A DNA stretch of 64,000 nucleotides, from assembly GCA_046348545.1 (NCBI GenBank), contig JAXMEB010000006.1, forward strand, positions 50,163 through 114,162, given 5' to 3'. The notes beneath the pieces were generated by a model, which saw nothing but the letters and a program-made list of their open reading frames with translations, did no database searches and was not told the origin of the DNA. Source of the stretch: Gammaproteobacteria bacterium (GTDB taxonomy: Bacteria; Pseudomonadota; Gammaproteobacteria; Berkiellales; Berkiellaceae). Position numbers and translations under genes: made by a program. This document shows, piece by piece, positions 4,409 to 48,294 of this stretch; positions within the stretch are counted from its first letter, which is position 1, and each line of letters begins with the position of its first letter.

Positions 4409-5005
4409 TTAATTTTGGAGGAGTTCTTTGTTGATTTTTGAACCATATTCATATGACATCCAGTCTGTGTTAATTGCACCAGCGGCTGTTTTTAAGCCTC
4501 TGCTCTGAACATGACCATTTTCAGCGGCATTTTGGAGAGCGTAGCCTTTAAAACGCGGCTCAATCACATCGCTGCATCGGTCTAGCAAGGTGGTGACGAT
4601 GGCCGCATGACCATTTTTAGCGGCATCTGAGAGAGTCTCGCCTTTAGTGTACGGATAAATCACATCACCGCATCGGTCTAACAAGGTGGTGACGATGGCC
4701 GCATGACCATTTCTAGCGGCATTTCGGAGCGCATTATGTTTTTCATCCTCAGAAATGTTGTTTTGATAATGCTCTAGCAGTTTCAGTAGAATTCCAGGGT
4801 TATGAAGTTCTATCGCTAAAGAAAATGGGGGTATTGTGTTAGCGTCAGAGTTTTTGATGGTGCTGTATGCGGGGATGATATAACCCGAGAGCAAGCTCCC
4901 AACCTTATCTTCATCACCATCTTTAATGGCTTGATATAAAAGAGGGCCTTTGTTATTAATCAAATTAAAAGTAAAAGCATTGAGAAGGCCGCGCAACATC
5001 ACCAA
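4409..5005 (-). CDS. ankyrin-repeat protein, probably the intact part of a decaying gene
   Basis: Repeated ..AA(R/K/E)NGHAAIVTTLLDRC.. 33-aa units match the ankyrin consensus. Two units are near-identical at DNA level (roughly 4560-4660 vs 4660-4760). A chain of overlapping short ORFs follows on the same strand (4192..4479, 4014..4208, 3875..4117). Confidence 0.7.
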   Translation of the reverse strand: MVMLRGLLNAFTFNLINNKGPLLYQAIKDGDEDKVGSLLSGYIIPAYSTIKNSDANTIPPFSLAIELHNPGILLKLLEHYQNNISEDEKHNALRNAARNGHAAIVTTLLDRCGDVIYPYTKGETLSDAAKNGHAAIVTTLLDRCSDVIEPRFKGYALQNAAENGHVQSRGLKTAAGAINTDWMSYEYGSKINKELLQN

Positions 5006-14638: not shown

Positions 14639-17596
14639 ATGTCAAGTGCGGATAAAAAAGATTACAAAGATACTTTGAATTTACCTAAAACCGATTTTCC
14701 AATGCGTGCAAATTTAGCGCAGCGGGAACCCAAGACATTAGAAAAATGGACATCTATAGATTTATATTCGAAACTGAGAGAAGAAGGGCAACAAAAGCCA
14801 AAATTTATTTTGCATGATGGCCCCCCTTACGCGAATGGCAATATTCATATTGGGCATGCCATCAATAAGGTTTTAAAAGATATCATTATTAAAGCCAAAA
14901 CATTATCGGGTTTTGATGCGCCTTATGTGCCAGGCTGGGATTGCCATGGCTTGCCGATTGAGCTCAATGTTGAGAAAAAACTTGGGAAACCAGGCGTTAA
15001 AGTGAGTGTGGATGAGTTTAGGAAAGCTTGTCGTACCTTCGCTGAACAGCAAATTCAACTTCAAAAAAAATCTTTTATGCGACTCGGCGTTATGGGTGAT
15101 TGGGATCATCTTTACCGTACTATGGATTTCAGCTATGAAGCCGATATTATTCGTTCATTTGGCAAGATAGTGGCCAATGGACATGTTGAAAAAGGGGTTC
15201 GTCCAGTCCATTGGTGTGTAGAATGTGGTTCTGCGCTCGCAGAAGCTGAAGTGGAATATAAAGATAAACGTTCGCCTTCCATCCATGTATTATTTGAAGC
15301 GTGTGATGCCAAAACGATACGGGATACTTTTAGTGTCACGGAAGGGGCTCATCTCCCACTGTATGCGGTGATATGGACGACAACCCCTTGGACGTTACCA
15401 GCCAATCAAGCCATTGCATTGCATCCGGAACTCACCTATGCCTTGGTTGAAACCCAAATTTTAGATCAAACGGTTTGTTTGATTGTTGCCGCAGAACTGT
15501 TAAGTGCTTTAGAGTCGAAGTTACAAACCTCGGCTAAAATATTAGGAACCTGTTTAGGAGAGGCGCTAGAGCATACCTTATTTACGCATCCTTTCTATGA
15601 TAGAAAGGTGCCGATGATATTGGGTCACCATGTCACGCTAGATGTTGGAACGGGGCTAGTGCATACCGCACCAGCACATGGTCTAGATGATTTTCATGTT
15701 TCCCATACCTATAAACTCCCCGTTGAAAGCCCAGTCGATCGGTATGGTCGCTTTATAAAAGAAACAGCCCAATTGGGTGGGCTGACCTTACACGACGCTA
15801 ATACTAAAATTATCGAAACTTTAAAAGAAAAAGGTCACTTGTTATCGGCAGAAAACCTGGAGCACAGCTACCCGCATTGTTGGCGTCATAAGACCCCTCT
15901 TATTTTCAGAGCCACGCCACAATGGTTTATCAGTATGGATCGCAATGAATTGCGCCAACGTTCGTTAGCAGCGATTGAAAATGTCAAATGGATACCGAAT
16001 TGGGGACAATCTAGAATTCAGCTGATGATAGAAGGTCGACCGGATTGGTGTATTTCACGGCAGCGAACCTGGAGTTTGCCGTTGGTGATGTTGACACACA
16101 AAGTAACCGGTGAGCCGCATCCTCAGTTACTGGAAATCATAGAATGTGTTGCCCAAAAAGTAGAGAACGGTGGAATGGAAGCGTGGCATGCGCTTGATTT
16201 AAAAACCTTGCCATTTGACAATTTAGACGAATATGAAAAATCAACAGATGGATTGGATGTTTGGTTTGATTCAGGTGTCTCGCATGCTTGCGTTCTGAAG
16301 CGAAGAATAGGGCTTGATTTTCCAGCAGATTTATATCTAGAGGGGTCAGATCAGCACCGTGGATGGTTTCAATCGTCCCTGTTAACCTCTGTTGCGATGG
16401 AGGGTATTCCACCTTTCAAACAAGTGCTGACGCATGGATTTACAGTAGATGCTAACGGACACAAAATGTCCAAATCTTTAGGTAATGTGGTTGCCCCCGA
16501 AAAAATTATTCAGACACTAGGTGCAGACGTGTTGAGATTATGGGTAGCCGCCACGGATTATCGTGGTGACATGGCGGTTTCGGATGAAATATTTACTCGA
16601 ACGAGTGATGCATACCGCCGTATTCGAAATACAGCAAGGTTTTTGCTAGCGAATTTAGATGGATTTCAGCCAGAACAAGATTTGATCTTAGATCATCAGT
16701 TCTTGGCTTTAGACGCGTGGATTGTTGAACGAGCAAAAATGCTCCAGGCAGAAATCATTGAAGCGTATGATGATTATCAATTTCATGTGATTTATCAAAA
16801 AATACATAATTTTTGTGTTGTAGAATTGGGCAGTATTTATTTAGATATTATCAAAGATAGACAATATACGACCAAGAAGGAAAGCGTTGCACGGCGCTCT
16901 GCGCAGTCTGCCATGTATCACGTAGTGCAAGCACTCAGCCTTTGGTTAGCGCCCATTTTAAGTTTTACAGCGGAAGAAATTTGGTCCTTTATTCCTGGAG
17001 AAAGATCCGACTCTATCTTTTTGTCAGAGTGGTATCAATCTTTTCCAGAAACAGGTTCACAGATTAACGATATATACCCACAACAGATGATTTTTCGGGT
17101 AGACGCCAAGCCCCTGAGCAACCGGAGTGTACATGAAGTACATGAGGATTGCGAAGTGGGCGCGGGCAACAACCCCGAAAATTCAGCTGTGAAGGGTATA
17201 GCATGGAAAATGATCTTTGATACGCGAGTTGAAGTGAATAAAGCACTCGAAGTCGCTCGCGCTGCTGGATTATTAGGATCTGGTTTAGAGGCAGAAGTTC
17301 ATCTGTATGTTGACGATACCTTGCATGCTTTGTTGTCGACCTTAAAAGATGAGTTGAGATTTGTGCTGATTACCTCAAACGCTGTCATTCATGCGCTTGA
17401 AGATAAGCCAAGTGACGCACAAGCAACTGAGTTGACTAATCTTTGGGTACGTGTTGAGCGTTCACCTCATGAGAAATGTCAACGATGTTGGCATCATCGC
17501 GAAGATGTTAATCAGCATCCTGACTATCCTGGCATCTGTGGACGATGTGTGACTAATATCGAGCAAGGCCCTGGGGAGAGCCGACAATATGCATAA
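14639..17596 (+). CDS. ileS: isoleucyl-tRNA synthetase carrying an in-frame MITE-derived insertion
   Basis: HIGH (PPYANGNIHIGHA), KMSKS (GHKMSKSLGN) and a C-terminal Zn finger (CQRCWHH..CGRC). Length is 985 aa, with the extra block encoded by the repeat at 17073-17200. Confidence 0.95.
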   Translation: MSSADKKDYKDTLNLPKTDFPMRANLAQREPKTLEKWTSIDLYSKLREEGQQKPKFILHDGPPYANGNIHIGHAINKVLKDIIIKAKTLSGFDAPYVPGWDCHGLPIELNVEKKLGKPGVKVSVDEFRKACRTFAEQQIQLQKKSFMRLGVMGDWDHLYRTMDFSYEADIIRSFGKIVANGHVEKGVRPVHWCVECGSALAEAEVEYKDKRSPSIHVLFEACDAKTIRDTFSVTEGAHLPLYAVIWTTTPWTLPANQAIALHPELTYALVETQILDQTVCLIVAAELLSALESKLQTSAKILGTCLGEALEHTLFTHPFYDRKVPMILGHHVTLDVGTGLVHTAPAHGLDDFHVSHTYKLPVESPVDRYGRFIKETAQLGGLTLHDANTKIIETLKEKGHLLSAENLEHSYPHCWRHKTPLIFRATPQWFISMDRNELRQRSLAAIENVKWIPNWGQSRIQLMIEGRPDWCISRQRTWSLPLVMLTHKVTGEPHPQLLEIIECVAQKVENGGMEAWHALDLKTLPFDNLDEYEKSTDGLDVWFDSGVSHACVLKRRIGLDFPADLYLEGSDQHRGWFQSSLLTSVAMEGIPPFKQVLTHGFTVDANGHKMSKSLGNVVAPEKIIQTLGADVLRLWVAATDYRGDMAVSDEIFTRTSDAYRRIRNTARFLLANLDGFQPEQDLILDHQFLALDAWIVERAKMLQAEIIEAYDDYQFHVIYQKIHNFCVVELGSIYLDIIKDRQYTTKKESVARRSAQSAMYHVVQALSLWLAPILSFTAEEIWSFIPGERSDSIFLSEWYQSFPETGSQINDIYPQQMIFRVDAKPLSNRSVHEVHEDCEVGAGNNPENSAVKGIAWKMIFDTRVEVNKALEVARAAGLLGSGLEAEVHLYVDDTLHALLSTLKDELRFVLITSNAVIHALEDKPSDAQATELTNLWVRVERSPHEKCQRCWHHREDVNQHPDYPGICGRCVTNIEQGPGESRQYA
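17073..17200 (+). mobile_element. 128-bp TA-flanked palindromic MITE (family 1), intragenic copy
   Basis: TATACCCACAACAG...CTGTGAAGGGTATA. Homologous to 51236-51363, 58958-59085 and 32094-32197. Confidence 0.85.
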
Positions 17597-18044
17597 CAAG
17601 CGATGGTTTTCCCTGATGATAATCGCTCTATTGCTTGATCAGGTTTCAAAATGGTTTGCTACGGCTTATCTCCATTTTGGAGAGGTCCTGAATTTATTTC
17701 CGGGCTTGAATTTATATTTGACTTACAACAAAGGAATCGCCTTTAGCATGATGAATCAAGGGGGGATTTGGCGACATTTTTTGTCCGGCCTTACCTTGAT
17801 GATTGTAATCGGGTTGTTGATCTGGCTTTATCGATTACCAGCACGGGAGAAGTGGTCCGCTATTAGTTTGAATTTAATTATTGGTGGCGCAATTGGAAAT
17901 CTGATTGATCGATTACGTCTAGGACATGTTGTTGATTTTATAGATGTATACTATCAGAATTGGCATTGGCCCACATTTAATTTGGCTGATTCCTGGGTCT
18001 GTATTGGTGCTGCTATTTTAGTTTGGGGGCTTTTTAAAGAATGA
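17589..18044 (+). CDS. lspA: lipoprotein signal peptidase II
   Basis: ..[12 protein letters not shown].. and ..FNLAD.. motifs, four hydrophobic segments, overlaps the ileS stop. Confidence 0.9.
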
Positions 18045-19009
18045 AAGTATTCCTTGCAAATCCACGTGGTTTTTGCGCCGGCGTTGCGCGTGCAATTGAT
18101 ATTGTTGAAGCAGCCCTTCAAAAATTTGGTGCGCCAATCTACGTGAGACATGAAGTGGTTCATAATCGCTTTGTTGTCGATGATCTCAAAAAAAGAGGGG
18201 CTGTTTTTGTCGATGAGCTTTCCAGTGTGCCAGACAATAGCGTTGTCATCTTTTCAGCGCATGGTGTTTCACAAGCTGTGAGACAAGAGGCTCGCGATCG
18301 AAATTTAACCACGGTATTAGATGCGACATGCCCATTGGTGACAAAAGTACACCTGGAAGTTGCGAGATTATCGAAACAAGGTATCGAATGTATCTTGATA
18401 GGGCATGCAGGTCATGCTGAAGTCGAAGGAACCCTAGGACAATATCACAATTTACAGGGTGGTATTTATCTCGTCGAAAAGAAAGAAGATGTTGCAGCTT
18501 TGTCTGTCAAAAATCCTGAATCACTTTTTTATGTCACGCAAACCACCTTATCGGTTGATGAAACGATGGAAATTATCCAGACGTTGAAATTAAAATTCCC
18601 AATGATCGAAGGCCCAAAGCGGGATGATATTTGCTATGCGACACAGAACAGACAAGATGCTGTGAGAAAACTTGCGCAAGTTTGTGATGTCATTTTTGTT
18701 GTTGGTTCAGTGAATAGTTCAAATTCAAATCGATTACGTGAACTCGCTGAGCAGGATGGTTGTTCAGCGTATCTTGTCGATAATGCCACTGAAATTCAAA
18801 GTGCTTGGCTTGAAAACAAAAAAGCTATCGGCGTCACAGCAGGGGCTTCTGCACCTGAAATTTTAGTGCGCGAGATGTTGCAGTATTTTAAAGATGAATG
18901 GCATGTCACGTCGATTGAGGAAATCACTGGAGAACCAGAAACCATGGTCTTTGCCTTACCTAAAGAGGTTCGTAATGTGAAGGTCACTGTTTCAGAGAGT
19001 ATGCGTTAA
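18041..19009 (+). CDS. ispH: 4-hydroxy-3-methylbut-2-enyl diphosphate reductase
   Basis: [19 protein letters not shown].. (LytB N-terminus with conserved Cys). Overlaps the lspA stop. Confidence 0.95.
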
Positions 19010-19138
19010 TAATATACTCAAACCACTTTGAATTTAGGCGAGGCGTCAAGTGAACGAATCCCCCGAAGTGCACATAGAGTGCATGACGGGGGTAAGAGAG
19101 CGCGGACAACAAAGCATAAATTTAAAGTGGGAAGAGTA

Positions 19139-19543
19139 TTACCAGCAAGTTGTTGGGCTTGGCCCCTTTATATTCGTGTGCGTGATAGTCAAGGGCGAGC
19201 AGGTCGTATCACTAGCTTGTGGACCGCCAGCAACAGGGGTTGCGTTTAAGGTATAAGTCGTTGCTGTCAGATTGGTGATAGTCATATTGTAGTAACCTTC
19301 AGGCGATGTAGCCGCAACGCCTAATGTCGCAGTGGTTGCGCCGACATAAGTATTATTTTCTGTGAAATAGTGCTCCATTCGTGCCGCCATGTTAAGGAGT
19401 GCAGCTTGACCATCAGAACGGCGTGTTTTACGCATTTGGTCATTATAGGCGGGATAAGATATAGCGGCTAATATTCCTACAATAACAATAGCGACCATTA
19501 GCTCAATCAAAGTAAATCCGACATGTTTTGTATCAAAGCTCAT
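19139..19543 (-). CDS. pilE: type IV pilin-like protein PilE
   Basis: Prepilin leader and N-terminal helix ..HVG-FTLIELMVAIVIVGILAAI... Last gene of the minor-pilin cluster. Confidence 0.85.
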   Translation of the reverse strand: MSFDTKHVGFTLIELMVAIVIVGILAAISYPAYNDQMRKTRRSDGQAALLNMAARMEHYFTENNTYVGATTATLGVAATSPEGYYNMTITNLTATTYTLNATPVAGGPQASDTTCSPLTITHTNIKGPSPTTCW

Positions 19544-19546
19544 GAC

Positions 19547-22500
19547 CTAATTAACCTCCTGCCAAGTTTGTCTGCCACTGACATTTTGTCCTGGATTCTC
19601 TCTTACGCCAGAAACACCACCGGTTCCGCTTAGCACTTTTACTTCACTATTGCCCTCTTGCGTTGTCATTACAGTCGGTGCGGCTGTTACGCCAACATCT
19701 GACATCACGCCAGCAGGCGGGGCTTTAACTTTGATTGTACTAGAACCTTGCTGCTCATTGAACTCGATGTAGTCAGAGGAATCAAAAGCCACATCACCAT
19801 TCACATCGAAGGGTGGTATTGCAAGGCGCCCACCATTCTTTGCATCCAACTCCATCAGCCAGCTGGTTGCCCTGAAAGTAGAGCATTGAGCCTCGCCATT
19901 TGAGCCAGAGGGAATCGTGGTTGTGAAGATAACGCGCCCATTTCTGAGAATGGGTTTGCTCGTGGCTCTCTCTCCTGTTGTCAAATCTAGGTACCATCCA
20001 TTTTGGGTTGTCCAGTTAATCTGATTGTTACTGACCGCTCTATAGTTATCAACAGTCCCTAATATTTTTTGCTGCAATAGCGTTGACTTGCCCGAAAAAC
20101 TCGTTGCTGTCGTTCCATTCTTATCCCAAATCGCATACATAGTTTGGGTGGACTGACTAGCTGGGTTTAGATCATTGGTTTCAATGAATTTGCCGGTTCC
20201 AAAATAAACCAAAAATCCCTTATCTAACCCTTGTGGGTGTGGTGCTACGACGGGTGCATTCAAAATAGGCTGTGAGGTGCCAGCACTATAGAGTTTTGAT
20301 ATCTTTGCGCTGGTTTTCCAAGTTGTTGGGGTAGTGGCTCTCACATCGAATCGCCACATATCTCCATTTAAATCCCCAGCATAGATATAATCAACCGTAA
20401 AATCTCCGTTGATATCAATGGCTGTGGGCTCAGATAACCCATTTTTTGTTCCGGTAGCACCCACGGGTATTTTGATATAATCTGTGTCCACTGTCCATGT
20501 GCCGTCAGTCCCGCCCTCTATGAAGAGTATGTATAATACGGCTTGGCCTGAGGTAGAGACTCTTGAGTCGGTTGTACCCGATGGGTATTGGTTTGTTGTG
20601 CTGTTGTACCCATTTCCAAAAATAACAGCCCATTTCTTGTTGTACATTCTAACAATTTGAGGGGTTCCAAAAGTATATCCGACATCCACATCGTTTGCGT
20701 CAGTGAATTCCCAGAGTACTTTACTGGCTGCATCAGCCGCAGAATTAGCAAAATTACCATCTGTGATATCAAGTGCAAAGACCCCCTGTCCTCCTAGACC
20801 TAGACCACTAGCCAGCACTGTGCGCCAATTTGTTGAGCCAGAGGGTAGGTAATCCGCTACGGCAGGTGTTTCATCGACAAAATAGCGGTGCGTGTATGAA
20901 TCTTTGGTCAACGACTGCAAATTACTCCAAATAGCAGGGTGCGCAGGCACATAAGCTACCATTTCAGCGCCAGTATTGGCATTGAATCCGTGTAGCATGC
21001 CATCATTTGCGCCGACGAATATCATGGGAGTTCTATTCTTATAAGTATTTTTGAAATTAAGATAATACGGGTCCGTGTATAGAGCCTTAGGAGGACCGAC
21101 ATACACTGAACCAGAATGAATCACATCCCCCATGATCGAAGAGCGGTTTCGATAAGTGCCACCTTTATCAATTTCCTTCGATTGATCGCCACGAAGATAC
21201 CTTATCCGCTCATTACCGATTGTAGCCCTTGAAGCGCTTGAGATATCGGAAACGAGGAGATTAGTCTGTGCTAATGGGATTTCGGAAGTGGTCGGCGACA
21301 GATAATTTACCGGCCAGTTGAAGACCACACCTCTTTTGTTCCCATAGGTGTACACGACGCGGTTCGTTGGTGAAATATTTTTGAGCTGAGCGGCTGCGCT
21401 CCAAATGGGTTGCGCTGTGTTAATATTGCCATTGCTATCAATGAGGAGCGCTTTTAAATCGCCTGACCAATCCGTATTTTTAAATTGTGCTTGATAGATA
21501 TGAGTGTTGTCTATCAACATTGATGAGCTGCTGGCGGAGGTCGAGCCAGAACCGAGCATAGCCGCTAGAATGCCTTGTAAGCTGGTAGAAAGGCCTGCCT
21601 GTAAATCTTCGAAATTGTTTGCTGCGAAAAATTGTCCCTTTGAATTAAAAGCAGCATGCCATAAATCATTTATTTTTGCTGGACAATCATCATTACAATC
21701 AGGATTGCCCCAATTGCTATTGATATTCATTTTGGGCGTAGGCCAGCCGTCTGCACCTGCGATGAGGTTGCCCGTTGCGCCAAATGCAATCCCCATGGTA
21801 TTCATGTGTTGCATGGTATTGGGATCCTCTTTTGTGGGGGCAACATTGTTAGCCATATTCGTGAGCAAATCATTTTTATAGTAGTGGTAAGCAACGTCGG
21901 ACAATGTCGAATATCTTGAGCCATATCCATCACCATCTACATCACCAAGCCTGGGTCGTTCTAAATTGGTATCGTTCCAGTAACCGTCGGTCATCAGAAT
22001 TGAAAAATTGCGCTGACAGCTTGTTTTAATCGGTGATGTGCCCAGTTGACCTGCATAATAACGACCTGCGGCATTGAGTGCAGAGACTAACGGAGTACCA
22101 ACAGCTTCTTGCTGTTTAACAAAGTATTGTCTCATTAAAATATTATTACTAGCTGTGAGGTCATCATTTAAGCCAGGTAGCTTGTTAGCTATGTTGCTGC
22201 CGTTATTAATGTAACTCAGGCCATAGTACAGTCCTGGGAAATTCGTGATGATGTAGCTGACCGCTGCTTTAGTGCTGAGAGAACGACGACGGTTGTATTC
22301 AAACCAATTAGCATAGTTTTGTTGCGCATTCGCGATAGTACGGCAACCTGGGCCGTTCGCCGCAGTAATGGCACGAGTTCCGTTAATGATTTCTTGCACT
22401 AAGTTTTGTGGTCCTAGAGCATCAAAACAAGTCGAATTGCTAGATAGCGTGGTAGTTTGAATCGTGTTCTGAATCGCTTGTGCATTGGTTGAACGAACGG

Positions 22501-23263
22501 TAACGGAAATAGTCGTCCCACCTGTGAATTGAATGAGTGCATTACTATCCCAAGGATCGATGATATTATTACTGCCACTCGCAATGTTATTCCGATTGGG
22601 TGTGTTTCCACTGAATTTTTTGTCGTCTACACTAACAGAATACGCAAGTCCGACCGTTTTCCCATTATATGAATAATTACCTAAGTTGACAGTAGTCTTG
22701 TAATCAGGGTGATCCCGGTGTGGATTGCTATTAGCGTTATCAAATTTTGCATTATCACAACTAACATAAGGATCGCCTGATACCCCTGTTCCATCACAAT
22801 AATTTAACCAGGGGGTATAGGTCACATTAGGATTATACGCCATGCCATTAAAATTAGAGTTAATAATACGCCAGTCTTCATTAATCAGTTCAGGAAAATC
22901 TAGGGCGTTATAGAATGAATATTTATTGTTTAAATTAAACAAATAATAAATTTCTCTGCTATTAAAACGTTTACCGCCGGATGTTGTTTTCTGTGAGAAA
23001 TGAAAAATGCCATCCTCTTGATAAGTCGTATTGCATTGGGTATAGCTCATGTCGGGATCGTAATTACAAGCCTCCCAATGCGGCTTCGCAATGACTTCCC
23101 AGTCCATAGACCCGGAGTCATCCATTACAAATAATACATTTGCTGGCGTTTCCTGTTGAATAAATAGGGGGGTGTTCGGAATAGATAATTGCCCTGCTTG
23201 CAGCAGACCGGATGTACAAGCTGTCGTAAGGAGGGTCATATAAACTTTTAATGAATATTTCAT
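19547..23263 (-). CDS. pilY1: PilY1 family tip adhesin / pilus biogenesis factor (copy B)
   Basis: Signal peptide; MIDAS-like VFVMDDSGSMDWE; GANDGMLHGFNA; Ca-site-like DINGDFTVDYIYAGDLNGDMWRFD. Start set at MKYSLKV.. (ATG 23263 after GGGGGA). Confidence 0.9.
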   Translation of the reverse strand: MKYSLKVYMTLLTTACTSGLLQAGQLSIPNTPLFIQQETPANVLFVMDDSGSMDWEVIAKPHWEACNYDPDMSYTQCNTTYQEDGIFHFSQKTTSGGKRFNSREIYYLFNLNNKYSFYNALDFPELINEDWRIINSNFNGMAYNPNVTYTPWLNYCDGTGVSGDPYVSCDNAKFDNANSNPHRDHPDYKTTVNLGNYSYNGKTVGLAYSVSVDDKKFSGNTPNRNNIASGSNNIIDPWDSNALIQFTGGTTISVTVRSTNAQAIQNTIQTTTLSSNSTCFDALGPQNLVQEIINGTRAITAANGPGCRTIANAQQNYANWFEYNRRRSLSTKAAVSYIITNFPGLYYGLSYINNGSNIANKLPGLNDDLTASNNILMRQYFVKQQEAVGTPLVSALNAAGRYYAGQLGTSPIKTSCQRNFSILMTDGYWNDTNLERPRLGDVDGDGYGSRYSTLSDVAYHYYKNDLLTNMANNVAPTKEDPNTMQHMNTMGIAFGATGNLIAGADGWPTPKMNINSNWGNPDCNDDCPAKINDLWHAAFNSKGQFFAANNFEDLQAGLSTSLQGILAAMLGSGSTSASSSSMLIDNTHIYQAQFKNTDWSGDLKALLIDSNGNINTAQPIWSAAAQLKNISPTNRVVYTYGNKRGVVFNWPVNYLSPTTSEIPLAQTNLLVSDISSASRATIGNERIRYLRGDQSKEIDKGGTYRNRSSIMGDVIHSGSVYVGPPKALYTDPYYLNFKNTYKNRTPMIFVGANDGMLHGFNANTGAEMVAYVPAHPAIWSNLQSLTKDSYTHRYFVDETPAVADYLPSGSTNWRTVLASGLGLGGQGVFALDITDGNFANSAADAASKVLWEFTDANDVDVGYTFGTPQIVRMYNKKWAVIFGNGYNSTTNQYPSGTTDSRVSTSGQAVLYILFIEGGTDGTWTVDTDYIKIPVGATGTKNGLSEPTAIDINGDFTVDYIYAGDLNGDMWRFDVRATTPTTWKTSAKISKLYSAGTSQPILNAPVVAPHPQGLDKGFLVYFGTGKFIETNDLNPASQSTQTMYAIWDKNGTTATSFSGKSTLLQQKILGTVDNYRAVSNNQINWTTQNGWYLDLTTGERATSKPILRNGRVIFTTTIPSGSNGEAQCSTFRATSWLMELDAKNGGRLAIPPFDVNGDVAFDSSDYIEFNEQQGSSTIKVKAPPAGVMSDVGVTAAPTVMTTQEGNSEVKVLSGTGGVSGVRENPGQNVSGRQTWQEVN

Positions 23264-23273
23264 GATATCCCCC

Positions 23274-23882
23274 TTAATTAAACCTTTTTGCATAAATCGA
23301 CTGGACCATTGATTTGTTAGGGCTATGTAATGCAGCATTCGTTGCCACCCCACCAGTGCCACGTGCTGTGATTCGATAATAATAGGTTCCTACGCCTTGT
23401 GCGCGAGTGCCTGGACTTAGATCGTCTGGTAAATAGCCGTACTCTTCTATAAAATACAGGGGTTGTTCATTTACGTATGCCACCTTTTGGGTAGTGCCAT
23501 CTAATGCAATCGCGTAGGTGGGCCAAAAGTCTCCATCCGTATCTGGATTCGTAGAAGACCACCAGTAAGCTGAGCTGCCTTTAAATTTTGAATTCAATGC
23601 ATTTTGAGCCCAAATTGAATTGCAAGGTGGTGTGGTGCAATTTGTGATCACAGTGGGTACCGCAGTGAGCATACCGATATACTGCTCGGCGGCAGAGAGA
23701 GAGGACTCTCCTGCTTGAAAGGCTAGATCGGTATTACGATCATTAGCTGAAATTTTTGTTTGTACTGTAGTTCTGTTAACGGATGAAACACCCAAGATGG
23801 TCAGTATAATCAAGAAAAACAGGCTGGCGACGAGTACGGTGCCTTGTTGAGCTCTCACAGAATGTAACGTATAATTACTCAT
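23274..23882 (-). CDS. pilX: PilX minor pilin (copy B)
   Basis: ..RAQQGTVLVASLFFLIILTILGVSS.. (PilX N-terminal type). Its ATG overlaps the pilW stop (TAGAATG). Confidence 0.75.
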   Translation of the reverse strand: MSNYTLHSVRAQQGTVLVASLFFLIILTILGVSSVNRTTVQTKISANDRNTDLAFQAGESSLSAAEQYIGMLTAVPTVITNCTTPPCNSIWAQNALNSKFKGSSAYWWSSTNPDTDGDFWPTYAIALDGTTQKVAYVNEQPLYFIEEYGYLPDDLSPGTRAQGVGTYYYRITARGTGGVATNAALHSPNKSMVQSIYAKRFN

Positions 23883-23883
23883 T

Positions 23884-24678
23884 CTACCCACCTATAGAAC
23901 TTCTGAGTTTAACCGTTGTCGTGACTGTTCTTCGCAAGTATTTATCATTGAAGGGACCCATAAGTGAATCTTGCAAAGCATAGGTTTGATTATTTGTCGT
24001 TGGGTTGACTTGCTCCAATGATCGTAGAAGGAGACCAATCCGAATGCTCACGACATTGTTTAGAACTAGACCAGCGAATCCAGGTGGTACATATCGGTCG
24101 ACTTGGCCGTCTCCATTTAAATCCTCGCCAAATCGGATGTGCATGGCTTCTATGCCATCAACTAAAACGGCAGGGTTGCTGGCATTTGGAACGCCATTGT
24201 TGATAGCACTGCAGACTAGCTGTCCTTGATTATTGACAGAAAAAGTATTCACAGCGATTTGGTTAGCATTCACTGTTTGAGCGAGACAGTCAAATACATT
24301 TCCACTGGGGCTACCTTGATATCGTACCGTGAGCGTGTCTGAACCGTTGACATTGTTGTTTGTACCTTGAATGAGTTCAGAGCCAGTTGGGAAAATGCTA
24401 GATAAATCGGGGTAATCTATCATCTTGGATAAATCGGGTGGTGAGCGAAATCCTGCTAGACGAATCGTTCTACTCATAAAAGTGGTTGCATATCGTCCAT
24501 TATTTTGGATTTCAGCTAAATTATGATCGAGGCGATAAGCTTGCTGATTATTGAGCATCAAGGTGATTAAACCTGACAGCAGGAGCATCGCAACAGTCAG
24601 GCTGACAAAAATTTCAACCAGACCTAGACCCAGTTGGCCGGGAAATGACTTAAGGTTTAAATGCGACACGATATTCAT
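23884..24678 (-). CDS. pilW: PilW minor pilin (copy B)
   Basis: Start at MNIVSHLNLKSFPGQLG-LGLVEIFVSLTVAMLLL (GGAGA 5 nt upstream). Length and position fit pilW. Atypical prepilin site. Confidence 0.7.
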   Translation of the reverse strand: MNIVSHLNLKSFPGQLGLGLVEIFVSLTVAMLLLSGLITLMLNNQQAYRLDHNLAEIQNNGRYATTFMSRTIRLAGFRSPPDLSKMIDYPDLSSIFPTGSELIQGTNNNVNGSDTLTVRYQGSPSGNVFDCLAQTVNANQIAVNTFSVNNQGQLVCSAINNGVPNASNPAVLVDGIEAMHIRFGEDLNGDGQVDRYVPPGFAGLVLNNVVSIRIGLLLRSLEQVNPTTNNQTYALQDSLMGPFNDKYLRRTVTTTVKLRSSIGG

Positions 24679-25210
24679 CGGTATCTCCATCACGACCGCG
24701 CCAAGAAATTTGAATGACGTAAACATCCCCTTGATTATTACAATTGACAGGAGAGCCAACAGCGCCTGGATTACTGGATAAGCAGATACGCCCTTTCCCA
24801 TCAGGTAATAGATTGGCCAGATTCGCTTGCCATTCGTATAAGTCATTGAGGGACATTTGCTGTTCAGTGCAACTTGATGATTGCGAGGTACCTTGTGTTG
24901 AGGGTTGATTGGGTATGCCGCCTAAGCACCCTAAATTGGTCTGCCCGGCACTCGTCGGGCTCGACGTGGTATACCCACCGCTCTTAGCTTGTTGATAATT
25001 CGATCGCATTCTATCAATAATGTCGGCTGCTTGTGTGCTTGCGAGGCTTGAAAGATAGGCATCATTATTTTTCTTCAGAGACTCTGTCTGAACGCTTGCC
25101 AATCCTAATAGACCAATCGAGAGCACTACCAAGGAAACCAGAACCTCAGTTAACGTAAATCCTGTTGATTTATGGAGTGCTATCATATTTAAGTAATTTC
25201 CATTATCCAT
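24650..25210 (-). CDS. pilV: PilV minor pilin (copy B)
   Basis: ..HKSTG-FTLTEVLVSLVVLSIGLLGLASVQ.. The true start may be the Met at 25186. Confidence 0.8.
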   Translation of the reverse strand: MDNGNYLNMIALHKSTGFTLTEVLVSLVVLSIGLLGLASVQTESLKKNNDAYLSSLASTQAADIIDRMRSNYQQAKSGGYTTSSPTSAGQTNLGCLGGIPNQPSTQGTSQSSSCTEQQMSLNDLYEWQANLANLLPDGKGRICLSSNPGAVGSPVNCNNQGDVYVIQISWRGRDGDTDEYRVAFKP

Positions 25211-25599: not shown

Positions 25600-28500
25600 C
25601 TAGGGCATGAGTTGACGCCAACTTTGCCGGCCCTGTGGTCCTGTAGATGGATTTTCAGTGGTGGATTCAAGTCCTGTTGCACCGTTTGAGACCTTGTACT
25701 CCTTGGACTTATCACTACTCAAAAAAACCGCGGGGGTAGACGCAATGCCCACTTTAGATTGTTTCCCGCTTGCTATGGCGTAATCATTGACACCGTCTCC
25801 ATTGATATCGCCTAAATCTATTAAGTCCTTGTTGTCAAATATGCCATCATGGTTTAAATCGAATGGTGAAAATTGCGTTTGTCCGCCATTGACTGCACTT
25901 AGCTCCATTAACCAGGAGGTGCCGCCAAAATCACAGGTTGATTGAGACGGAATTAGTGTTGTAAAAATGATATTGCGATTTCTCAATATGGGCTTTGTAA
26001 TTTGCCTTTCGCCATGATTGCCATGACCAGTGACAATTAAATCGAGATACCATCCTAAATGCTGTGCTGGGTCATTTGGATTGATGGGCGCTGTCCAGTT
26101 GATAGCATTGCTGCTGACTTGACGGAGTGCAAAGGAGGTATCAAGTGTTCCGTCGCCATCGGTATCGAAACTTTGGTTTTTTTCAACTAGAATATCTTGT
26201 TTCAGAAGTTCTGCTTTAGTGGGTAGTGTGCCATCTAGTTTGTCCCAGAGGCCATAGAAAGTTTGAGTCGTTTGACCTGTGGTTGTATTGTCTGAAGGTT
26301 CTAGATATTTACCCGTGCCAAAATAAATCATAATCCCTTGGTTGAGGCCCCTGGGATGAGGGCCAACAACCAATGGCGCCGTGATGGGTTGATCGCCAGC
26401 GATTGATTGAGAGGCCGAAAAGAACAATGTGGTATTTTGATCCCAATTGGTTGGGGTATTTCCTCTGATGTCAAATTTCCAAATATTACCTTTGATGTCA
26501 CCAGCGTAGATATAATCTGTGATCCAATCGCCATTGATGTCCACGGGGTAAGGGGTGCCTAATCCATTTGGGGTGGCTGGATTGTTGGGTCCTACAGGTA
26601 TTTTGATATAATCGTTGTTAATCGTCCAAACGCCATCAAGACCTTTTTCTATAAATAGGATGAAAATTGCAGCCTGTCCTGTGGTGCTCGCGAAACCGTC
26701 AGCCAGTGAATTATTGTAACCATTACCAACAATGGCAGCCCAGGTACTTTGGCCAGCGCCTGATCTGACTTTGACAATAGGGATCTGTCCGTAAACAAAT
26801 CCTAAATCTGGATCTTGCTCATCGCTGAATTCCCACATCAAAATTTGGCTGGCATTGTTTTCATTAAAACTATTAGGATTGGTAATATCCAGTGCAAATA
26901 GACCTTGAGCGCCGTTTCGAAGTCCTGATATCAGGGCTGTCTTCCATTGGCCATTGACGAAGACATCTCCTTCATTCGGCGTTCCATCGACAAAATTAGT
27001 GTGCTGATAATTAGTTTTACTCAAGTTGGGTAATTTAGTAAAAATCTCTCGCATCCCGGGGATGTAGCCTATGATTTCTGCCCCAGTTGCTGCATTAAAT
27101 CCATGCATCATACCGTCATTGGCACCAGCAAAGATCATATTGATCCGATTCTGATTGGCGCTTTTAAAAGTACTGTAGGCTGCTATTTCTAGGGAATCTG
27201 GATAAAGACGATCAGGCGGGCCTACATAAAGTGGATCTGAATTAATGATATCCCCTAACAGACCTTTTCGAGTTCGAAAAACACCATTGTTCCCAGATTC
27301 TTGACTTCTGTCACCTCGAAGATATGCAATGAGGTTATCGCCATAGACTTGATTTGCAATGATTTCAGTTGACACAATGGTATTGGGATTAAAAGGGGCA
27401 TTCGACAGCAAACTGGTAATCCGGCTGGGTAATGCGCCAGTGACTTTGAGTGCGGTATAGTTGGTAGGCCATCGAAACGGAATAGCTAATGTTCCATTAT
27501 GACTCCAGTCCCTTGTCAGGATCACACGTTGACTAGGTAACTGTCCTGGATTGTTGGTAGCTGCTTTCAGAGGGAATACGCAATCTCCCCCCGTTAATAC
27601 ACAATTTGCGTTCCAAGTCGGCGTATTTGAAACATTACCCGTGGCATCGATGGGGTATGCGATCAATTCGCCTTGCCAACTACCACTATCGAAACGTGCC
27701 TGATACACATATGAATTCGTTTGTAACGTGGTTGAATTTTGAGCCGCCATGGTAGCGGAGCTAACACGACTACCTATATTGGATAGGGCGTTCGAGAGTT
27801 CAGAGATGATCGTCTCTGGTGTTTGAGCAGAGACATAAGTGCCTTTACTATTGAATGCAGCATGCCATAAATCGTCTATTTTCTCAGGATTGGAGTTATA
27901 TGGATTCCCCCAATTGCCATTGATGGGTATTGCAGGATTTGGCCAACCATCTTGATCGGTATCATACAAATTCCCCGTCAGCCCAAATGCAATCATGAAG
28001 GAGACCATATGTTGATAAGTGGCCGGATCGAGTGGGCTAGGATTGACTTGATTAGGGAGAGGACTTAAATCTTTCAAGTAATAATATCGAGCAACATCGG
28101 CTAGCGTTCGAAATTTTCCATCTCCATCTGCATCACCAATGACGGATGATGGATTATTTCCATTCCAATATCCATCTGTCAAAAGGATAGCAAAATTCTG
28201 TTGGCATGCTTCAATAATCGGATCAGTCTTACCTGAAAGAGTGGCATCATAATACTGCCCAACTTCTTCTAAGCCGGTACGAAGTGGTGTTCCTAGTGCT
28301 GCCCAAGAATAGCTAAAGAGCTGAGAAAGCAAGTCTTGATTATGGTTTGCATAATTTGTCACATTGCTTGCTGGAACTTGAACAAATAATGAATTTGATT
28401 GGTTAATAACGCTTAATCCATATCGATAATTTGGGCTTTGGGCGATAACACTGCCAATGGCCGCTTTTGCTGAGAGTGATCGCTTTCGTTGGTATTGATA

Positions 28501-29430
28501 CCAATTAGCAAAATTAAGCTTGGCTGAAGCTAGTGAGCGACAACCACTACCGCCAGTTGCATTGAAGGCTGATGTCCCATTAAAAATGTCCTGTACCAAA
28601 CTCTTAGGACCCAGTGCATTGTAACAAGCCAGCGCGTTAGAAAGTGTGCCAAGTAAAGTCGTTGTTTCCCCCATACCTGCGGCTGTGGGAGAATAAGTTG
28701 TTTTGTAAACTTGTACATTAGCCGAATTAATCACGATTTTAATATGACTATCCCATAAGTCAACTTGCGTATTGGGTGTATTGGTGACATTTAAACTGCC
28801 TGCCCGGAGTGGGCGACCGCTCGCTGTATTATATCCCTTATCGTCAAACCAGACTTGATATTCGCTACCTGCTAAGCTTCTAGTTAAGCTGTAGCCGGTT
28901 GTTCCTTCTCTTGGATTTGATCGAGCTGCTGTAAAATTTGCGTTAGCGCAAGTTGTGTTATTGATTAAGCAAGGCCCCTTCCAGGGGTTGTAGGTAGTGG
29001 AGGGGTTATAATAGGTGAAGTTTAAATCTGATGAGTAAACACGCCAATCTTGCGTGCCAGCCTGCGTACAGGCCTCGATAGAATTAAAGTCTGGGTCATT
29101 ACAATCATCGTCATACAAGTTATCGTCTATCGTATAGATATAGGTAAAGTGCCGATATTGATTGTTTCCAAAACTGCGTAAAAGACCGTTAGTAACCTGA
29201 TATCCACAAGCGACGCTCGAAGAATAGCTGCCGCCAGCGTTGGGATCGTATGCACAGAAGTGCCAGTGTGATGGCGTTAAGATCTCCCAATCCATTGAGC
29301 CTGAATCATCCAATTCAAAAAAGACGTTAGGATCAACTTTAGAACCCAAAAATAAAGGACTGTCTGCTAGGTTCAACTGTCCGCCTAACACAATTTTAGG
29401 TAATAAGCATATCAGCGAAATTTTCTTCAT
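25600..29430 (-). CDS. pilY1: PilY1 family tip adhesin / pilus biogenesis factor (copy A)
   Basis: Signal peptide; FFELDDSGSMDWE; GANDGMMHGFNA; DINGDWITDYIYAGDIKGNIWKFD; extra Ca-loop-like DLNHDGIFDNKD / DINGDGVNDY. Confidence 0.9.
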   Translation of the reverse strand: MKKISLICLLPKIVLGGQLNLADSPLFLGSKVDPNVFFELDDSGSMDWEILTPSHWHFCAYDPNAGGSYSSSVACGYQVTNGLLRSFGNNQYRHFTYIYTIDDNLYDDDCNDPDFNSIEACTQAGTQDWRVYSSDLNFTYYNPSTTYNPWKGPCLINNTTCANANFTAARSNPREGTTGYSLTRSLAGSEYQVWFDDKGYNTASGRPLRAGSLNVTNTPNTQVDLWDSHIKIVINSANVQVYKTTYSPTAAGMGETTTLLGTLSNALACYNALGPKSLVQDIFNGTSAFNATGGSGCRSLASAKLNFANWYQYQRKRSLSAKAAIGSVIAQSPNYRYGLSVINQSNSLFVQVPASNVTNYANHNQDLLSQLFSYSWAALGTPLRTGLEEVGQYYDATLSGKTDPIIEACQQNFAILLTDGYWNGNNPSSVIGDADGDGKFRTLADVARYYYLKDLSPLPNQVNPSPLDPATYQHMVSFMIAFGLTGNLYDTDQDGWPNPAIPINGNWGNPYNSNPEKIDDLWHAAFNSKGTYVSAQTPETIISELSNALSNIGSRVSSATMAAQNSTTLQTNSYVYQARFDSGSWQGELIAYPIDATGNVSNTPTWNANCVLTGGDCVFPLKAATNNPGQLPSQRVILTRDWSHNGTLAIPFRWPTNYTALKVTGALPSRITSLLSNAPFNPNTIVSTEIIANQVYGDNLIAYLRGDRSQESGNNGVFRTRKGLLGDIINSDPLYVGPPDRLYPDSLEIAAYSTFKSANQNRINMIFAGANDGMMHGFNAATGAEIIGYIPGMREIFTKLPNLSKTNYQHTNFVDGTPNEGDVFVNGQWKTALISGLRNGAQGLFALDITNPNSFNENNASQILMWEFSDEQDPDLGFVYGQIPIVKVRSGAGQSTWAAIVGNGYNNSLADGFASTTGQAAIFILFIEKGLDGVWTINNDYIKIPVGPNNPATPNGLGTPYPVDINGDWITDYIYAGDIKGNIWKFDIRGNTPTNWDQNTTLFFSASQSIAGDQPITAPLVVGPHPRGLNQGIMIYFGTGKYLEPSDNTTTGQTTQTFYGLWDKLDGTLPTKAELLKQDILVEKNQSFDTDGDGTLDTSFALRQVSSNAINWTAPINPNDPAQHLGWYLDLIVTGHGNHGERQITKPILRNRNIIFTTLIPSQSTCDFGGTSWLMELSAVNGGQTQFSPFDLNHDGIFDNKDLIDLGDINGDGVNDYAIASGKQSKVGIASTPAVFLSSDKSKEYKVSNGATGLESTTENPSTGPQGRQSWRQLMP

Positions 29431-29438
29431 ACGTTCAA

Positions 29439-29963
29439 CTAATTAAAAGAAACAGAATAAACAGACTCAATATAAACCTTTGAATCACTCGTACTGCCTG
29501 TACCTTTGGATGTTATTTTGTAGAATTCATACCCCTTTCTTTTGGAGAGCGATTCTGGACTGAGTTCATATGGAATAAACATTTCCTCTTGAATAATGTA
29601 TCTGGGCAACGAAGTGCTCCCATATAATGTGCTGCTAAAAGCTTTGGCATTCGACTGCCACCAACTATCACTTTTTCGATCAAGATCTTGCTGAATACCA
29701 TAGGCCCAGACATCGCATGGTGGTAAGGAGCATGCCGCTGTTGTGCTTGGCCTATTGGGTTGTTGCTTTAGCCATTGTTCTGCATCGAGTAGCGCTGATT
29801 CTGCTGATTGAAATGCGTTCGTTTTGTCGCGAAGATTGCCTGAAAGCTTTTCGGCAAGAGTACTACTATTCATTGTAGCGATACCCATAATTGTCAATAT
29901 TAACAATATCATCAATCCTGCGATGAGTACGGTCCCTTGTTGTTTTGATGCGATTTTTTTCAT
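29439..29963 (-). CDS. pilX: PilX minor pilin (copy A)
   Basis: MKKIASKQQGTVLIAGLMILLILTIMGIA... The alternative ATG at 29978 overlaps the pilW stop. Confidence 0.75.
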   Translation of the reverse strand: MKKIASKQQGTVLIAGLMILLILTIMGIATMNSSTLAEKLSGNLRDKTNAFQSAESALLDAEQWLKQQPNRPSTTAACSLPPCDVWAYGIQQDLDRKSDSWWQSNAKAFSSTLYGSTSLPRYIIQEEMFIPYELSPESLSKRKGYEFYKITSKGTGSTSDSKVYIESVYSVSFN

Positions 29964-29971
29964 ACTAATAC

Positions 29972-46002: not shown

Positions 46003-46207
46003 AATCCCCTTCTATAGTCGTCATCCTTTAATATTTTTATTGTTTTTCTTTGCAGTATCTTTAAAACCAACTATTTTAAACAGAGACGTTAGTTCCAAAT
46101 ATATTTGTTGGGTAGCTTGCAACCTAAAGGGTGCTTGTCACGGCGGGTTGCAATCCTTAGAATATTCGTTTAAGTGATTTAATGGTTTAATTTAAGGATA
46201 TCAGGAT

Positions 46208-47176
46208 ATGAAAAAGCTAATCAAATTCGGCCTTGGCACGCTCGTTGCTGCGGTAACTTTTTCGGCAGGAGCAAATTCTTTTGAAGATGCGACAAAGCGC
46301 ACGGCAGTTTGGGCAAAGGGACATTGGGATGTCCCCTCGAATGAACGCTTAGCTTATGCTCAGAAACTGACAACAGCAGTGTTTCCTGGCGAAACTTATT
46401 TTGTAGAGCCGGATAACGCATTTGATTTAGCCTTTGGGGTTGAGCACGCTCTTCCGATGAGTGAGAATGGCACGGATTTTAATGTGGTCTTAGACTATGA
46501 TCAGTACTCGACCAACCAGAAAGATGTGAAATCCGGAGCGACCTTTTCTAGTATCCTTGGCTTAGCCGGTATTGGCCCTGCTGCTGATGTCAGTCGTGAA
46601 GCAAACATACAGTTACGAGATCGCACTTGGCGTTTAGGTGTGCAGCGGGCTAAAGAATTTGGTCGCTTTGATTGGCGACTTGGCGCTTTTGCAGAGTATT
46701 CTAAGTTAGCGCGCACTTATAATTTGCTTGAGCGTTCGGTTGCTGAGGGGCGTCAACTTTTCACCAAGCAAGAGTCCGATGGCTGGGGTCCTAGCTTTGA
46801 TATCATGGGTCGTTTCTATCCTTGGGGGCGTGATACAGGGTTTAGTGTATTCGGTGGCGGAGAGACTGCATTTTTATATAGTGACCAGGGGCTTAGCGTT
46901 GTTTCGTCTACAAATGGCAACCGCTTACCGGACAATGAAAATCAAAATCGCACAGATTTAAATGCCGTTATGACGCGACTGGGTGCCAGTGTTGGTGTGG
47001 GATACGCTCGTCCGATCAGTGAAGATGTGATGGTTGGTTTCAAAGTCGGTGGCCGTTGGATGAGTTACTATAATGCTTTTAAAAATAGTAGTGATTTAAC
47101 AACAGGTCGTACGGACTATGATCGTGTGGGCCCGTTTCTTGAGCTCAGAGTGGGTGGTACGCATTCGCCGATGTGA
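46208..47176 (+). CDS. outer-membrane beta-barrel protein, paralogue 1 (Legionella-MOMP-like by impression)
   Basis: Signal peptide MKKLIKFGLGTLVAAVTFSAGANS and alternating amphipathic strands. About 90% identical to paralogue 2. Confidence 0.7.
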   Translation: MKKLIKFGLGTLVAAVTFSAGANSFEDATKRTAVWAKGHWDVPSNERLAYAQKLTTAVFPGETYFVEPDNAFDLAFGVEHALPMSENGTDFNVVLDYDQYSTNQKDVKSGATFSSILGLAGIGPAADVSREANIQLRDRTWRLGVQRAKEFGRFDWRLGAFAEYSKLARTYNLLERSVAEGRQLFTKQESDGWGPSFDIMGRFYPWGRDTGFSVFGGGETAFLYSDQGLSVVSSTNGNRLPDNENQNRTDLNAVMTRLGASVGVGYARPISEDVMVGFKVGGRWMSYYNAFKNSSDLTTGRTDYDRVGPFLELRVGGTHSPM

Positions 47177-47312
47177 TTCACTAAGCGTGATGAGAAAAGC
47201 ACCTTTGGTTTGTTGCGTAGCCAGCAACCTAAAGGGTGCTTCTCACGCTTGATTGCAATCCTTAAAATACTTGTTTAAGTGATTTAATGGTTCCATTTAA
47301 GGATATTGGGAT

Positions 47313-48278
47313 ATGAAAACGCTAATCAAATTCGGCCTTGGTACACTCATTGCTGCGGTAACTTTTTCGGCAGGAGCAAATTCTTTTGAAGATGCGACAA
47401 AACGCACTGCAGTTTGGGCAAAGGGTCATTGGGATGTCCCCTCGAATGAACGCTTAGCCTATGCTCAGAAACCGACAACAGCAGTGTTTCCTGGCGAAAC
47501 TTATTTTGTAGAGCCTGATAACGAATTTGATTTAGCCTTTGGGATTGAGCACGCTCTTCCGATGAGTGAGAATGGCACGCATTTTAATGTGGTCTTAGAC
47601 TATGATCAGTACTCGACCAACCAGAAAGATGTGAAATCCGGAGCGACCTTTTCTAGTATCCTTGGTCCTTTCGGTATTGGCGCTGCTGCTGATGTCAGTC
47701 GTGAAGCAAACATACAGTTACGAGATCGCACTTGGCGTTTAGGTGTGCAGCGGGCTAAAGAATTTGGTCGCTTTGATTGGCGACTGGGCGCCTTTGCAGA
47801 GTATTCTAAAGTAGCACGCACCTATAATATCCTTGAACGTTCGGTTGCTGACGGGAGTCAACTTTTCATCAAACAAGAGTCCGATGGCTGGGGCCCTAGC
47901 TTTGATATGATGGCTCGTTTCTATCCTTGGGGGCGTGATACGGGGTTTAGTGTATTCGGTAGCGGAGAGACTGCATTTTTATATAGTGACCAGGGGGTTC
48001 GCATTGTTTCGTCTGCAAATTCTTTACGTTCAGTTACTGAAAACGGAAATCGCGCAGATTTAAATGCCGTTATGACGCGGCTGGGTGCCAGTGTTGGTGT
48101 GGGATACGCTCTTCCGATCAGTGAAGATGTGATGGTTGGTTTCAGAGTCGGTGGCCGTTGGATGAGTTACTATAATGCTTTTAAAAATAGTAGTAATTTA
48201 ACAACAGGTCGTACGGACTATGATCGTGTCGGGCCTTTCCTAGAGTTTAGAATCGGTGGCACGCATTCACCGATGTGA
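47313..48278 (+). CDS. outer-membrane beta-barrel protein, paralogue 2
   Basis: Tandem copy, including about 110 bp of upstream sequence. Differs from paralogue 1 mainly in one short patch. Confidence 0.7.
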   Translation: MKTLIKFGLGTLIAAVTFSAGANSFEDATKRTAVWAKGHWDVPSNERLAYAQKPTTAVFPGETYFVEPDNEFDLAFGIEHALPMSENGTHFNVVLDYDQYSTNQKDVKSGATFSSILGPFGIGAAADVSREANIQLRDRTWRLGVQRAKEFGRFDWRLGAFAEYSKVARTYNILERSVADGSQLFIKQESDGWGPSFDMMARFYPWGRDTGFSVFGSGETAFLYSDQGVRIVSSANSLRSVTENGNRADLNAVMTRLGASVGVGYALPISEDVMVGFRVGGRWMSYYNAFKNSSNLTTGRTDYDRVGPFLEFRIGGTHSPM

Positions 48279-48294
48279 TTCATTAAGACTGATG

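Follow-up and report, generated by a model that had tools for sequence, protein, structure and literature searches.

The isoleucyl-tRNA synthetase gene ileS of a gammaproteobacterial metagenome-assembled genome (MAG) contains a 128-bp palindromic element, and a recent, tolerated, in-frame insertion of a mobile palindromic repeat is very probably the explanation. The gene lies on a 64,000-nucleotide stretch (hereafter the window) of contig JAXMEB010000006.1 in assembly GCA_046348545.1, where it forms a single 985-aa open reading frame (ORF) at 14639-17596 on the plus strand (NCBI MFO1259219.1, 'MAG: isoleucine--tRNA ligase [Gammaproteobacteria bacterium]'). The element, which runs from TATACCCACAACAG... 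to ...CTGTGAAGGGTATA at 17073-17200, was located within ileS with the frame open throughout, as had been described in an original prediction made from the sequence alone. The extra IleS peptide was likewise confirmed to be the translation of the element, in phase +2. The parts of the element are as follows.

17073-17200, plus strand: palindromic element of subfamily B, in frame, encoding residues ~812-854 (IYPQQMIFRVDAKPLSNRSVHEVHEDCEVGAGNNPENSAVKGI)
17073-17099, plus strand: left terminal arm, TA + TACCCACAACAGATGATTTTTCGGG, which pairs with the right arm
17174-17200, plus strand: right terminal arm, CCCGAAAATTCAGCTGTGAAGGGTA + TA; Logan contig L004 begins at 17175 and reads into ileS

Comparison with relatives supported the view that this block is an insertion of a dispersed palindromic repeat and not ancestral protein sequence. 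The 90%-identity cluster of IleS comprised three Logan-assembled proteins of 943 aa each. In global alignments, P0001, P0122, and P0123 (88.8-90.3% identical) showed a single gap of exactly 42 residues, at positions 812-853, and the same 42-residue gap was seen for P0002 (75% identical) in the IleS alignment. The comparison with orthologs proposed in the original prediction thus gave four relatives that each lacked exactly these residues, and the block, which an ancestral origin would place in relatives as well, was absent from all 12 IleS homologs aligned. The other listed top homologs were 932-983 aa long, P0033 alone exceeding 964 aa.

At the nucleotide level, the contig of the closest relative (L001) was syntenic with the window at ~84% identity, aligned up to position 17052, and resumed at 17200. 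Its empty ileS site spanned 22 bp compared to 148 bp in the window, a net difference of 126 bp, which is the size that had been predicted for the insertion. Since this gain equals 42 codons, the downstream frame of ileS was kept. The site was empty in L001, L008, P0122, and P0123 and filled in the window. The element was not found in the 18.7 kb of L001, and the more distant L008 harbored a copy between obg and rpsT, a spacer that was empty in both the window and L001. The absence of a copy from L001 and its different location in L008 indicated that the repeat family has been moving within the period over which these lineages diverged. Judging from these sequence comparisons, the ileS copy appears to have been gained in the window lineage after ~10% protein divergence.

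Structural features of the repeat were consistent with those of a MITE (miniature inverted-repeat transposable element): it is shorter than 400 bp, lacks a transposase gene, has terminal inverted repeats (TIRs) and a stable stem-loop, and is present in many dispersed copies with filled and empty sites. Each copy folds into a single long hairpin with imperfect pairing (-53 to -59 kcal/mol), and the hairpin of the ileS copy is intact and the strongest of all (-59 kcal/mol; z = -8.4). A palindrome with imperfect terminal inverted repeats and TA ends had been foreseen; the terminal arms indeed pair end to end, and TA was found at both ends of every intact copy. Among six copies from three organisms, 17 of the 41 pairs were changed on both sides and 94% of cells were paired, values for which none of 500 shuffles reached any measure and slid partners were only 28-45% paired. 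These compensatory changes across the stem indicate that the palindrome is conserved as a whole, not at its termini alone. The inner hairpin is preceded by a single GTAG (GGGTAGGCGCC...), exactly where the truncated copy begins.

Phases +2, -1, and -2 were free of stop codons in both the ileS copy and the copy at 51236-51363, and phase -1 of the copy at 58958-59085 contained a stop. The only ORFs within the 128-bp element were these 42-codon phases. A promoter and terminator scan of 16800-17700 gave no signal inside the element, and no integration host factor (IHF) site was detected. Using gathering and E-value thresholds, Rfam recognized two tRNAs, with nothing beyond chance-level hairpin matches in the element region, and a blastn search of PLSDB plasmids with the element returned no match.

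Four further copies were present in the window, all of them between ORFs; compared with these, the ileS copy had 25-26 differences over 128 positions. The three additional copies named in the original prediction were recovered, and its count of four proved incomplete: a fifth copy, diverged and of full length (nhmmer E = 5e-9), had been missed.

19013-19140, plus strand: diverged full-length copy, 4 bp past the ispH stop codon; folds at -55 kcal/mol via compensatory changes
32094-32197, plus strand: 5'-truncated copy of subfamily A between two GspH/FimT-like minor-pilin genes; lacks the first 24 nt and starts exactly at GGGTAG
51236-51363, minus strand: intergenic full copy of subfamily A; annotated as P0138, a hypothetical protein of 58 aa whose start is the internal ATG of the element
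58958-59085, minus strand: intergenic full copy of subfamily A

The terminal 14-mer matched three times against 0.26 expected, and a 23-nt arm pattern matched seven times against 0.00 expected from shuffles. The element ends were not found outside the five copies in the 64-kb window. The arm pattern CCCWYMACASMTGAWTTTTCGGG gave one match among those listed for genome contigs and one in metagenome contigs; both were discarded as chance matches lacking the palindrome.

The surroundings of the intergenic copies showed several further features. The interval between ispH and the pilin gene (19009-19139) holds only the diverged element copy, and the corresponding region of L001 (10086-10789) has ~700 bp, including an 89-aa ORF. 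A second hairpin repeat adjoins the copy at 51236-51363, extending over 51367-51607 with arms at 51367-51419 and 51511-51563 that are 81% complementary. Its portion at 51525-51607 matches L001 10121-10156 and 10725-10790, the pieces flanking a ~570-bp segment with the 89-aa ORF, and this hairpin and the L001 segment may represent another pair of a MITE and its parent. The repeat-rich spacer of the same copy also contains two 45-nt direct repeats, 76% identical and 54 nt apart (51055-51153). The truncated copy lies just downstream of two successive PilY1/PilX/PilW minor-pilin sets on the minus strand, at 19547-25210 and 25600-31359.

To assess the abundance of the repeat, a profile of its translation was compared with 5.8 billion proteins. 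As a result, 61 protein clusters with 96 member sequences were matched, 60 from the same MAG, in which the matches were distributed over six contigs of 823, 810, 679, 188, 121, and 63 kb (~2.7 Mb in total). The proteins in these clusters are annotated as 'hypothetical proteins' of 43-74 aa. About 100 'hypothetical proteins' of 41-75 aa in this MAG are translations of the element. In most of the clusters (56 of 61), the protein begins at the element's internal ATG (MIFRV...) or beside it and extends into flanking DNA; these element-derived proteins are most likely annotation artefacts, a point of practical relevance. Because ~100 annotated ORFs contain the translation, this number is a floor for the copies of the element. 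One match, P0168, bears a RelE/ParE toxin annotation because its ORF extends into the 3' portion of a gene of that kind.

Two subfamilies were distinguished by their peptides. The majority, subfamily A (...GAERSRRRSVHKVHDCGENREGNN...), is Arg-rich, and subfamily B (...GAKPLSNRSVHEVHEDCEVGAGNN...) is acidic. The ileS copy belongs to subfamily B and is only two to three residues away from P0167, P0176, and P0161 of the same genome. In the original prediction it had been regarded as the copy most diverged in its central part, consistent with either an old insertion or selection for a tolerated peptide. This view was rejected, as the copy is an ordinary subfamily B member with the strongest hairpin of all. 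Its divergent center is thus a signature of the subfamily, in which the differences are paired and compensatory, and reflects neither decay nor selection within ileS. Given the near-identical subfamily B copies and the strength of the hairpin, the insertion looks young. Longer composite variants (P0181, P0183-P0186, and P0189) were also observed, with extra, roughly symmetric segments (left ...PACALRASAGMGA..., right ...PPTLLRATDGQA...) that may be nested insertions resembling repetitive extragenic palindromic (REP) sequences or a 'full-size' form.

The insertion in ileS is not the only one inside a gene. An exhaustive HMMER search of 1.84 billion representatives identified 43 proteins with the element peptide, all from the same MAG, Candidatus Berkiella aquae, or metagenome and Logan contigs. 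In the MAG, P0192 (U1E78_09280, 621 aa) carries an internal in-frame copy at residues 268-308. P0193 (U1E78_04365, 1087 aa) carries one at residues 483-524, and a poly(A)-polymerase head domain lies downstream of it. Both flanks of P0193 are joined without the element in one protein, P0210 (51% identical), which identifies P0193 as a genuine gene whose variable middle has received an insertion. Proteins with internal copies from other samples included an IS607-like recombinase, a TPM-domain protein (in a minus phase), a 195-aa protein, and a Berkiella aquae protein. An insertion escapes this search whenever the representative of its cluster is a protein without the block. That was the case for IleS itself, and the count of genic copies is therefore a minimum. 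The IS607-like protein (P0201; ENA contig, 163 aa) has a MerR helix-turn-helix (HTH) and a serine-recombinase motif; the HTH is split in frame by the element, which indicates that the repeat also inserts into the transposase of another mobile element.

Identical IleS, LspA, and IspH proteins are deposited in NCBI as MFO1259219-21 of a MAG with locus tags U1E78_, on a contig of 121,001 bp. The gene order ribF-ileS-lspA-ispH is conserved with overlapping stop and start codons, and the G+C content of the window is 42-43%. On the basis of the G+C content and this gene order, Coxiella burnetii was considered as the source of the window and its QMITE2 as the identity of the element; this assignment was rejected, as the exact proteins belong to the Gammaproteobacteria MAG and the best relatives of IleS are on Logan contigs. 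The element peptide occurs in a protein of Candidatus Berkiella aquae (UniRef A0A0Q9YLF4), an intranuclear amoeba symbiont of the Legionellales/Coxiellaceae (PMC9803151, PMC6507137). A Legionella_OMP-family protein is encoded in the window. Together with a DOT1-domain neighbor of the element in a related contig, these two matches led us to infer that the host is a Berkiella-like, probably intracellular bacterium. In that material (JGI 3300007505; L006 1539-1666 and L007 2780-2907), a copy resembling subfamily B extends over the 3' end of a gene with a DOT1 domain, a eukaryote-like histone methyltransferase, and this overlap hints at an intracellular, effector-rich relative.

The position of the block offers a possible reason for its tolerance by an essential synthetase. 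The IleRS structures 8c9e and 1ffy align with the protein as two blocks, at query residues 8-797 and 855-972, leaving 57 query residues opposite 15. In an AlphaFold2 model with a mean predicted local distance difference test score (pLDDT) of 85 and a predicted template modeling score (pTM) of 0.83, residues 816-849 had a pLDDT of 27-38 and no secondary structure, and the helical domain before them and helix 854-875 after them reached ~95-96. Furthermore, IleS homologs vary in length exactly at the insertion point. From these three lines of evidence, the block is predicted to form a loop that connects the anticodon-binding domain to the C-terminal Zn-binding domain, with its 42 residues probably disordered and exposed at the surface. 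The original prediction had placed the block just before the Zn finger; it does precede the C-terminal domain, but the Cys motifs are ~95 residues downstream and do not adjoin it. The 985-aa IleS is presumably made and active.

Taken together, these results are consistent with the following course of events. A non-autonomous, fully palindromic MITE-like repeat, 128 bp long including TA at each end, has spread to ~100 or more copies in an uncultured Berkiella-like host. A subfamily B copy inserted beside TA, inside a codon of the variable IleS linker between the anticodon-binding and Zn-binding domains, after the split from relatives with ~90% identical IleS. Survival of the gene can be attributed to three circumstances: the net gain of 126 bp keeps the downstream frame, three of the six insertion phases are free of stops and the ileS copy lies in one of them, and the site is a length-variable inter-domain loop. 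The insertion is best regarded as a near-neutral event that was tolerated, such as can reach fixation in small intracellular populations, rather than as an adaptation. Several observations weigh against this interpretation. Of the two junctions, the left one did not turn up in an independent assembly, and the Logan contig with ribF (L005) ends after 165 ileS codons. The low pLDDT of the insert partly reflects shallow alignment depth there. In addition, the empty site of the relatives reads GAT GCA GCC/GAC TGG and contains no TA. A TA target thus needs one to two extra substitutions in the window lineage, in which ATA or GTA would have been needed at that codon before the insertion.

How the element enters its sites was approached through its flanks. 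TA targets with a 2-bp duplication are known from IS630-related MITEs, and TA is also duplicated at the targets of Correia elements and RUP. Of 13 junctions, 11 had I, L, or V (codon NTA) immediately ahead of the peptide encoded by the element, so that the base preceding TA varies. In P0134, a tandem pair of elements shares ...GGGTA-TA-TACCC..., with the junction KGI/YPQQ. The TA target duplication considered in the original prediction is compatible with the 126-bp gain, being consistent with a 124-bp core plus a duplicated TA. It is not proven, as a 126-nt element placed beside TA without duplication fits equally well and the empty site lacks TA.

The latter model belongs to an alternative mechanism that we consider unlikely on balance, yet the most serious of the alternatives. 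Here, the element would be hairpin-dependent, of the REP/REPIN or IS200/IS605 type, and would be inserted 3' of TA without duplication by a Y1-type HUH transposase, instead of being a DDE-type (IS630-like) MITE. The whole stem, and not the ends alone, is kept by compensatory changes, a GTAG precedes the inner hairpin at the very point where the truncated copy starts, and a 126-nt unit placed after TA accounts for both the 126-bp gain and the KGI/YPQQ junction as well as duplication does. By contrast, TA on both sides of intact copies and outer arms that form classic TIRs (ends TACCCACAACAG) resemble TA-targeting MITEs, and REP/REPIN sequences are almost always extragenic, whereas this element also occurs within genes. 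Moreover, no transposase of either the DDE or the Y1 type was seen in the window.

The remaining alternatives concern the gene itself and are less probable still than a Y1-type mechanism. It is improbable that ileS has been inactivated or crippled as a young or incipient pseudogene in a cell using a second ileS, such as a type-2 enzyme encoded elsewhere. A recent insertion could leave the ORF intact by chance, and half of the insertion phases stay open. However, the other 943 residues are 89-90% identical to those of relatives, with no further indel and no stop, the site is a variable inter-domain loop between two domains modeled with high confidence, and the ribF-ileS-lspA-ispH context is conserved with its overlapping stop and start codons.

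A more remote explanation is an assembly artefact, in which the assembler, at a node that was chimeric or collapsed, threaded a repeat copy into ileS, while the real gene lacks it. The MAG was built from short reads, Logan unitigs are interrupted within the element on both sides, and L005 stops far short of the left junction. Nevertheless, L004, from the independent assembly of run SRR26348422, contains identical lspA and ispH, starts at 17175 in the right arm, and crosses the junction into ileS; its other end stops inside the copy at 19013-19140. Both of its ends thus lie inside element copies, as is expected of unitigs, which break at repeats. A chimera at the junctions was the artefact against which the original prediction had cautioned, and on the right-hand side the junction has thus been recovered independently. 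Furthermore, the subfamily B sequence is unlike the four other window copies, so a mis-join with a generic repeat copy is unlikely, and a random mis-join would rarely yield an exact 126-bp difference with the frame kept.

Comparably remote is an adaptive role, be it of the 42-residue block, for example as a novel loop for interaction or regulation, or of the mRNA hairpin in regulating lspA and ispH: the acidic subfamily B peptides differ from the Arg-rich subfamily A ones and a strong hairpin does lie within the operon, but the ileS peptide is so close to intergenic subfamily B copies (two to three residues) as to show no gene-specific reshaping, the hairpin is undecayed, the block is absent from all close relatives, and the element has no promoter-like or terminator-like signal.

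With insertion of a mobile repeat as the preferred reading, the element was compared with known repeat families. Rickettsia palindromic elements (RPEs) are in-frame palindromic repeats inside unrelated Rickettsia genes, including housekeeping genes, at fold-compatible sites (Ogata et al. 2000, 2002, as far as summarized in PMC10969869). The element shares with them the form of a dispersed palindrome of ~100-150 bp, a probably intracellular host, and a conserved peptide in an open phase. It also shares the presence of in-frame copies inside genes that stay open (ileS, P0192, and P0193), a likeness of behavior and not of family membership, as well as a site that, according to the model, is fold-compatible, being an inter-domain linker with a low-pLDDT loop. 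Unlike RPEs, it resides in a Berkiella-like gammaproteobacterial host instead of an alphaproteobacterium, and no Rickettsia protein was among the 43 matches of the exhaustive peptide search. Its genic fraction appears to be well below theirs, at one in five in the window and a handful of ~100 overall, compared to nearly half for RPEs.

QMITE2/GTAG-REP of Coxiella burnetii is 150-190 bp long with variable direct repeats of 7-11 bp and 50-80 copies per genome (Wachter et al. 2018, PMC5896051). Both are hairpin repeats with outer inverted repeats around an inner GTAG-type palindrome, both have full-size and 5'-shortened copies, some of which overlap ORFs, and the QMITE2 host represents the cultured group nearest Berkiella. 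The published description of QMITE2 sets it apart from the present element, which is 128 bp long, is flanked by TA only, and is found mid-gene; in functional genes, QMITE2 occupies 3' ends only (PMC5896051), whereas the ileS element lies in the middle of its gene. Compared to REP/REPIN sequences, the element has a single GTAG at the foot of its inner hairpin and occurs also inside genes.

Correia elements of Neisseria and RUP of pneumococcus are bacterial MITEs reviewed in PMC3184786 and PMC10969869. They resemble the element in their length of 100-160 bp, TIRs beginning in TA, transcripts that form a long stable hairpin, copy numbers in the hundreds, and occasional ORF fusions, and differ in sequence and host. 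Moreover, the present element has no detected IHF site or promoter, and its whole stem covaries. The enterobacterial repeats ERIC, YPAL/RU-2, and RU-3, which extend the 3' ends of genes (Delihas 2007, as cited in PMC3184786), are likewise small mobile repeats with open phases that are fused to or lie within chromosomal ORFs. Internal in-frame repeat insertions are known in pneumococcus and Bordetella (PMC3184786). Hence, the original characterization of the element as RPE-like outside Rickettsia holds for its behavior, and such behavior is uncommon but not unprecedented.

No description of the repeat family was found in the Berkiella genome paper, and an incomplete literature search found neither a description of it nor a repeat inside any aminoacyl-tRNA synthetase. 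It therefore appears to be an undescribed MITE-like family that behaves like RPEs. We tentatively entertain the broader idea, for which the case is still somewhat weak, that 'protein-coding palindromes' arose independently a second time in Berkiella-like hosts, repeatedly adding peptide loops to real proteins, an essential aminoacyl-tRNA synthetase among them, in convergence with RPEs and tied to an intracellular lifestyle, possibly with structure-dependent, Y1-type mobilization. Under that idea, the net gain of 42 codons, the absence of stops from three phases, and compensatory changes that maintain the hairpin may be the properties of a coding-compatible unit.

In Rickettsia, selfish palindromes lying in frame in housekeeping proteins are a textbook curiosity. 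The present case, which is clean and datable and comes from an unrelated lineage of bacteria that are probably symbionts of amoebae, provides a second system in which to ask whether insertions of this sort are simply tolerated when selection is relaxed and whether repeat families evolve compatibility with coding sequence. Its strengths are the availability of both filled and empty sites, the two subfamilies, and an essential synthetase as the host gene.

Elsewhere in the window, a tandem duplication of ~1.1 kb (46104-48306 and 48576-49568; 91-92% identical) was found just past a tRNA gene. It gives rise to two paralogous ORFs of ~322 aa without a Pfam match, next to which the Legionella_OMP-family ORF is located. 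A 96-bp tandem repeat, 82% identical, was also observed at 4510-4701 within the ORF at 4409-5005 on the minus strand.

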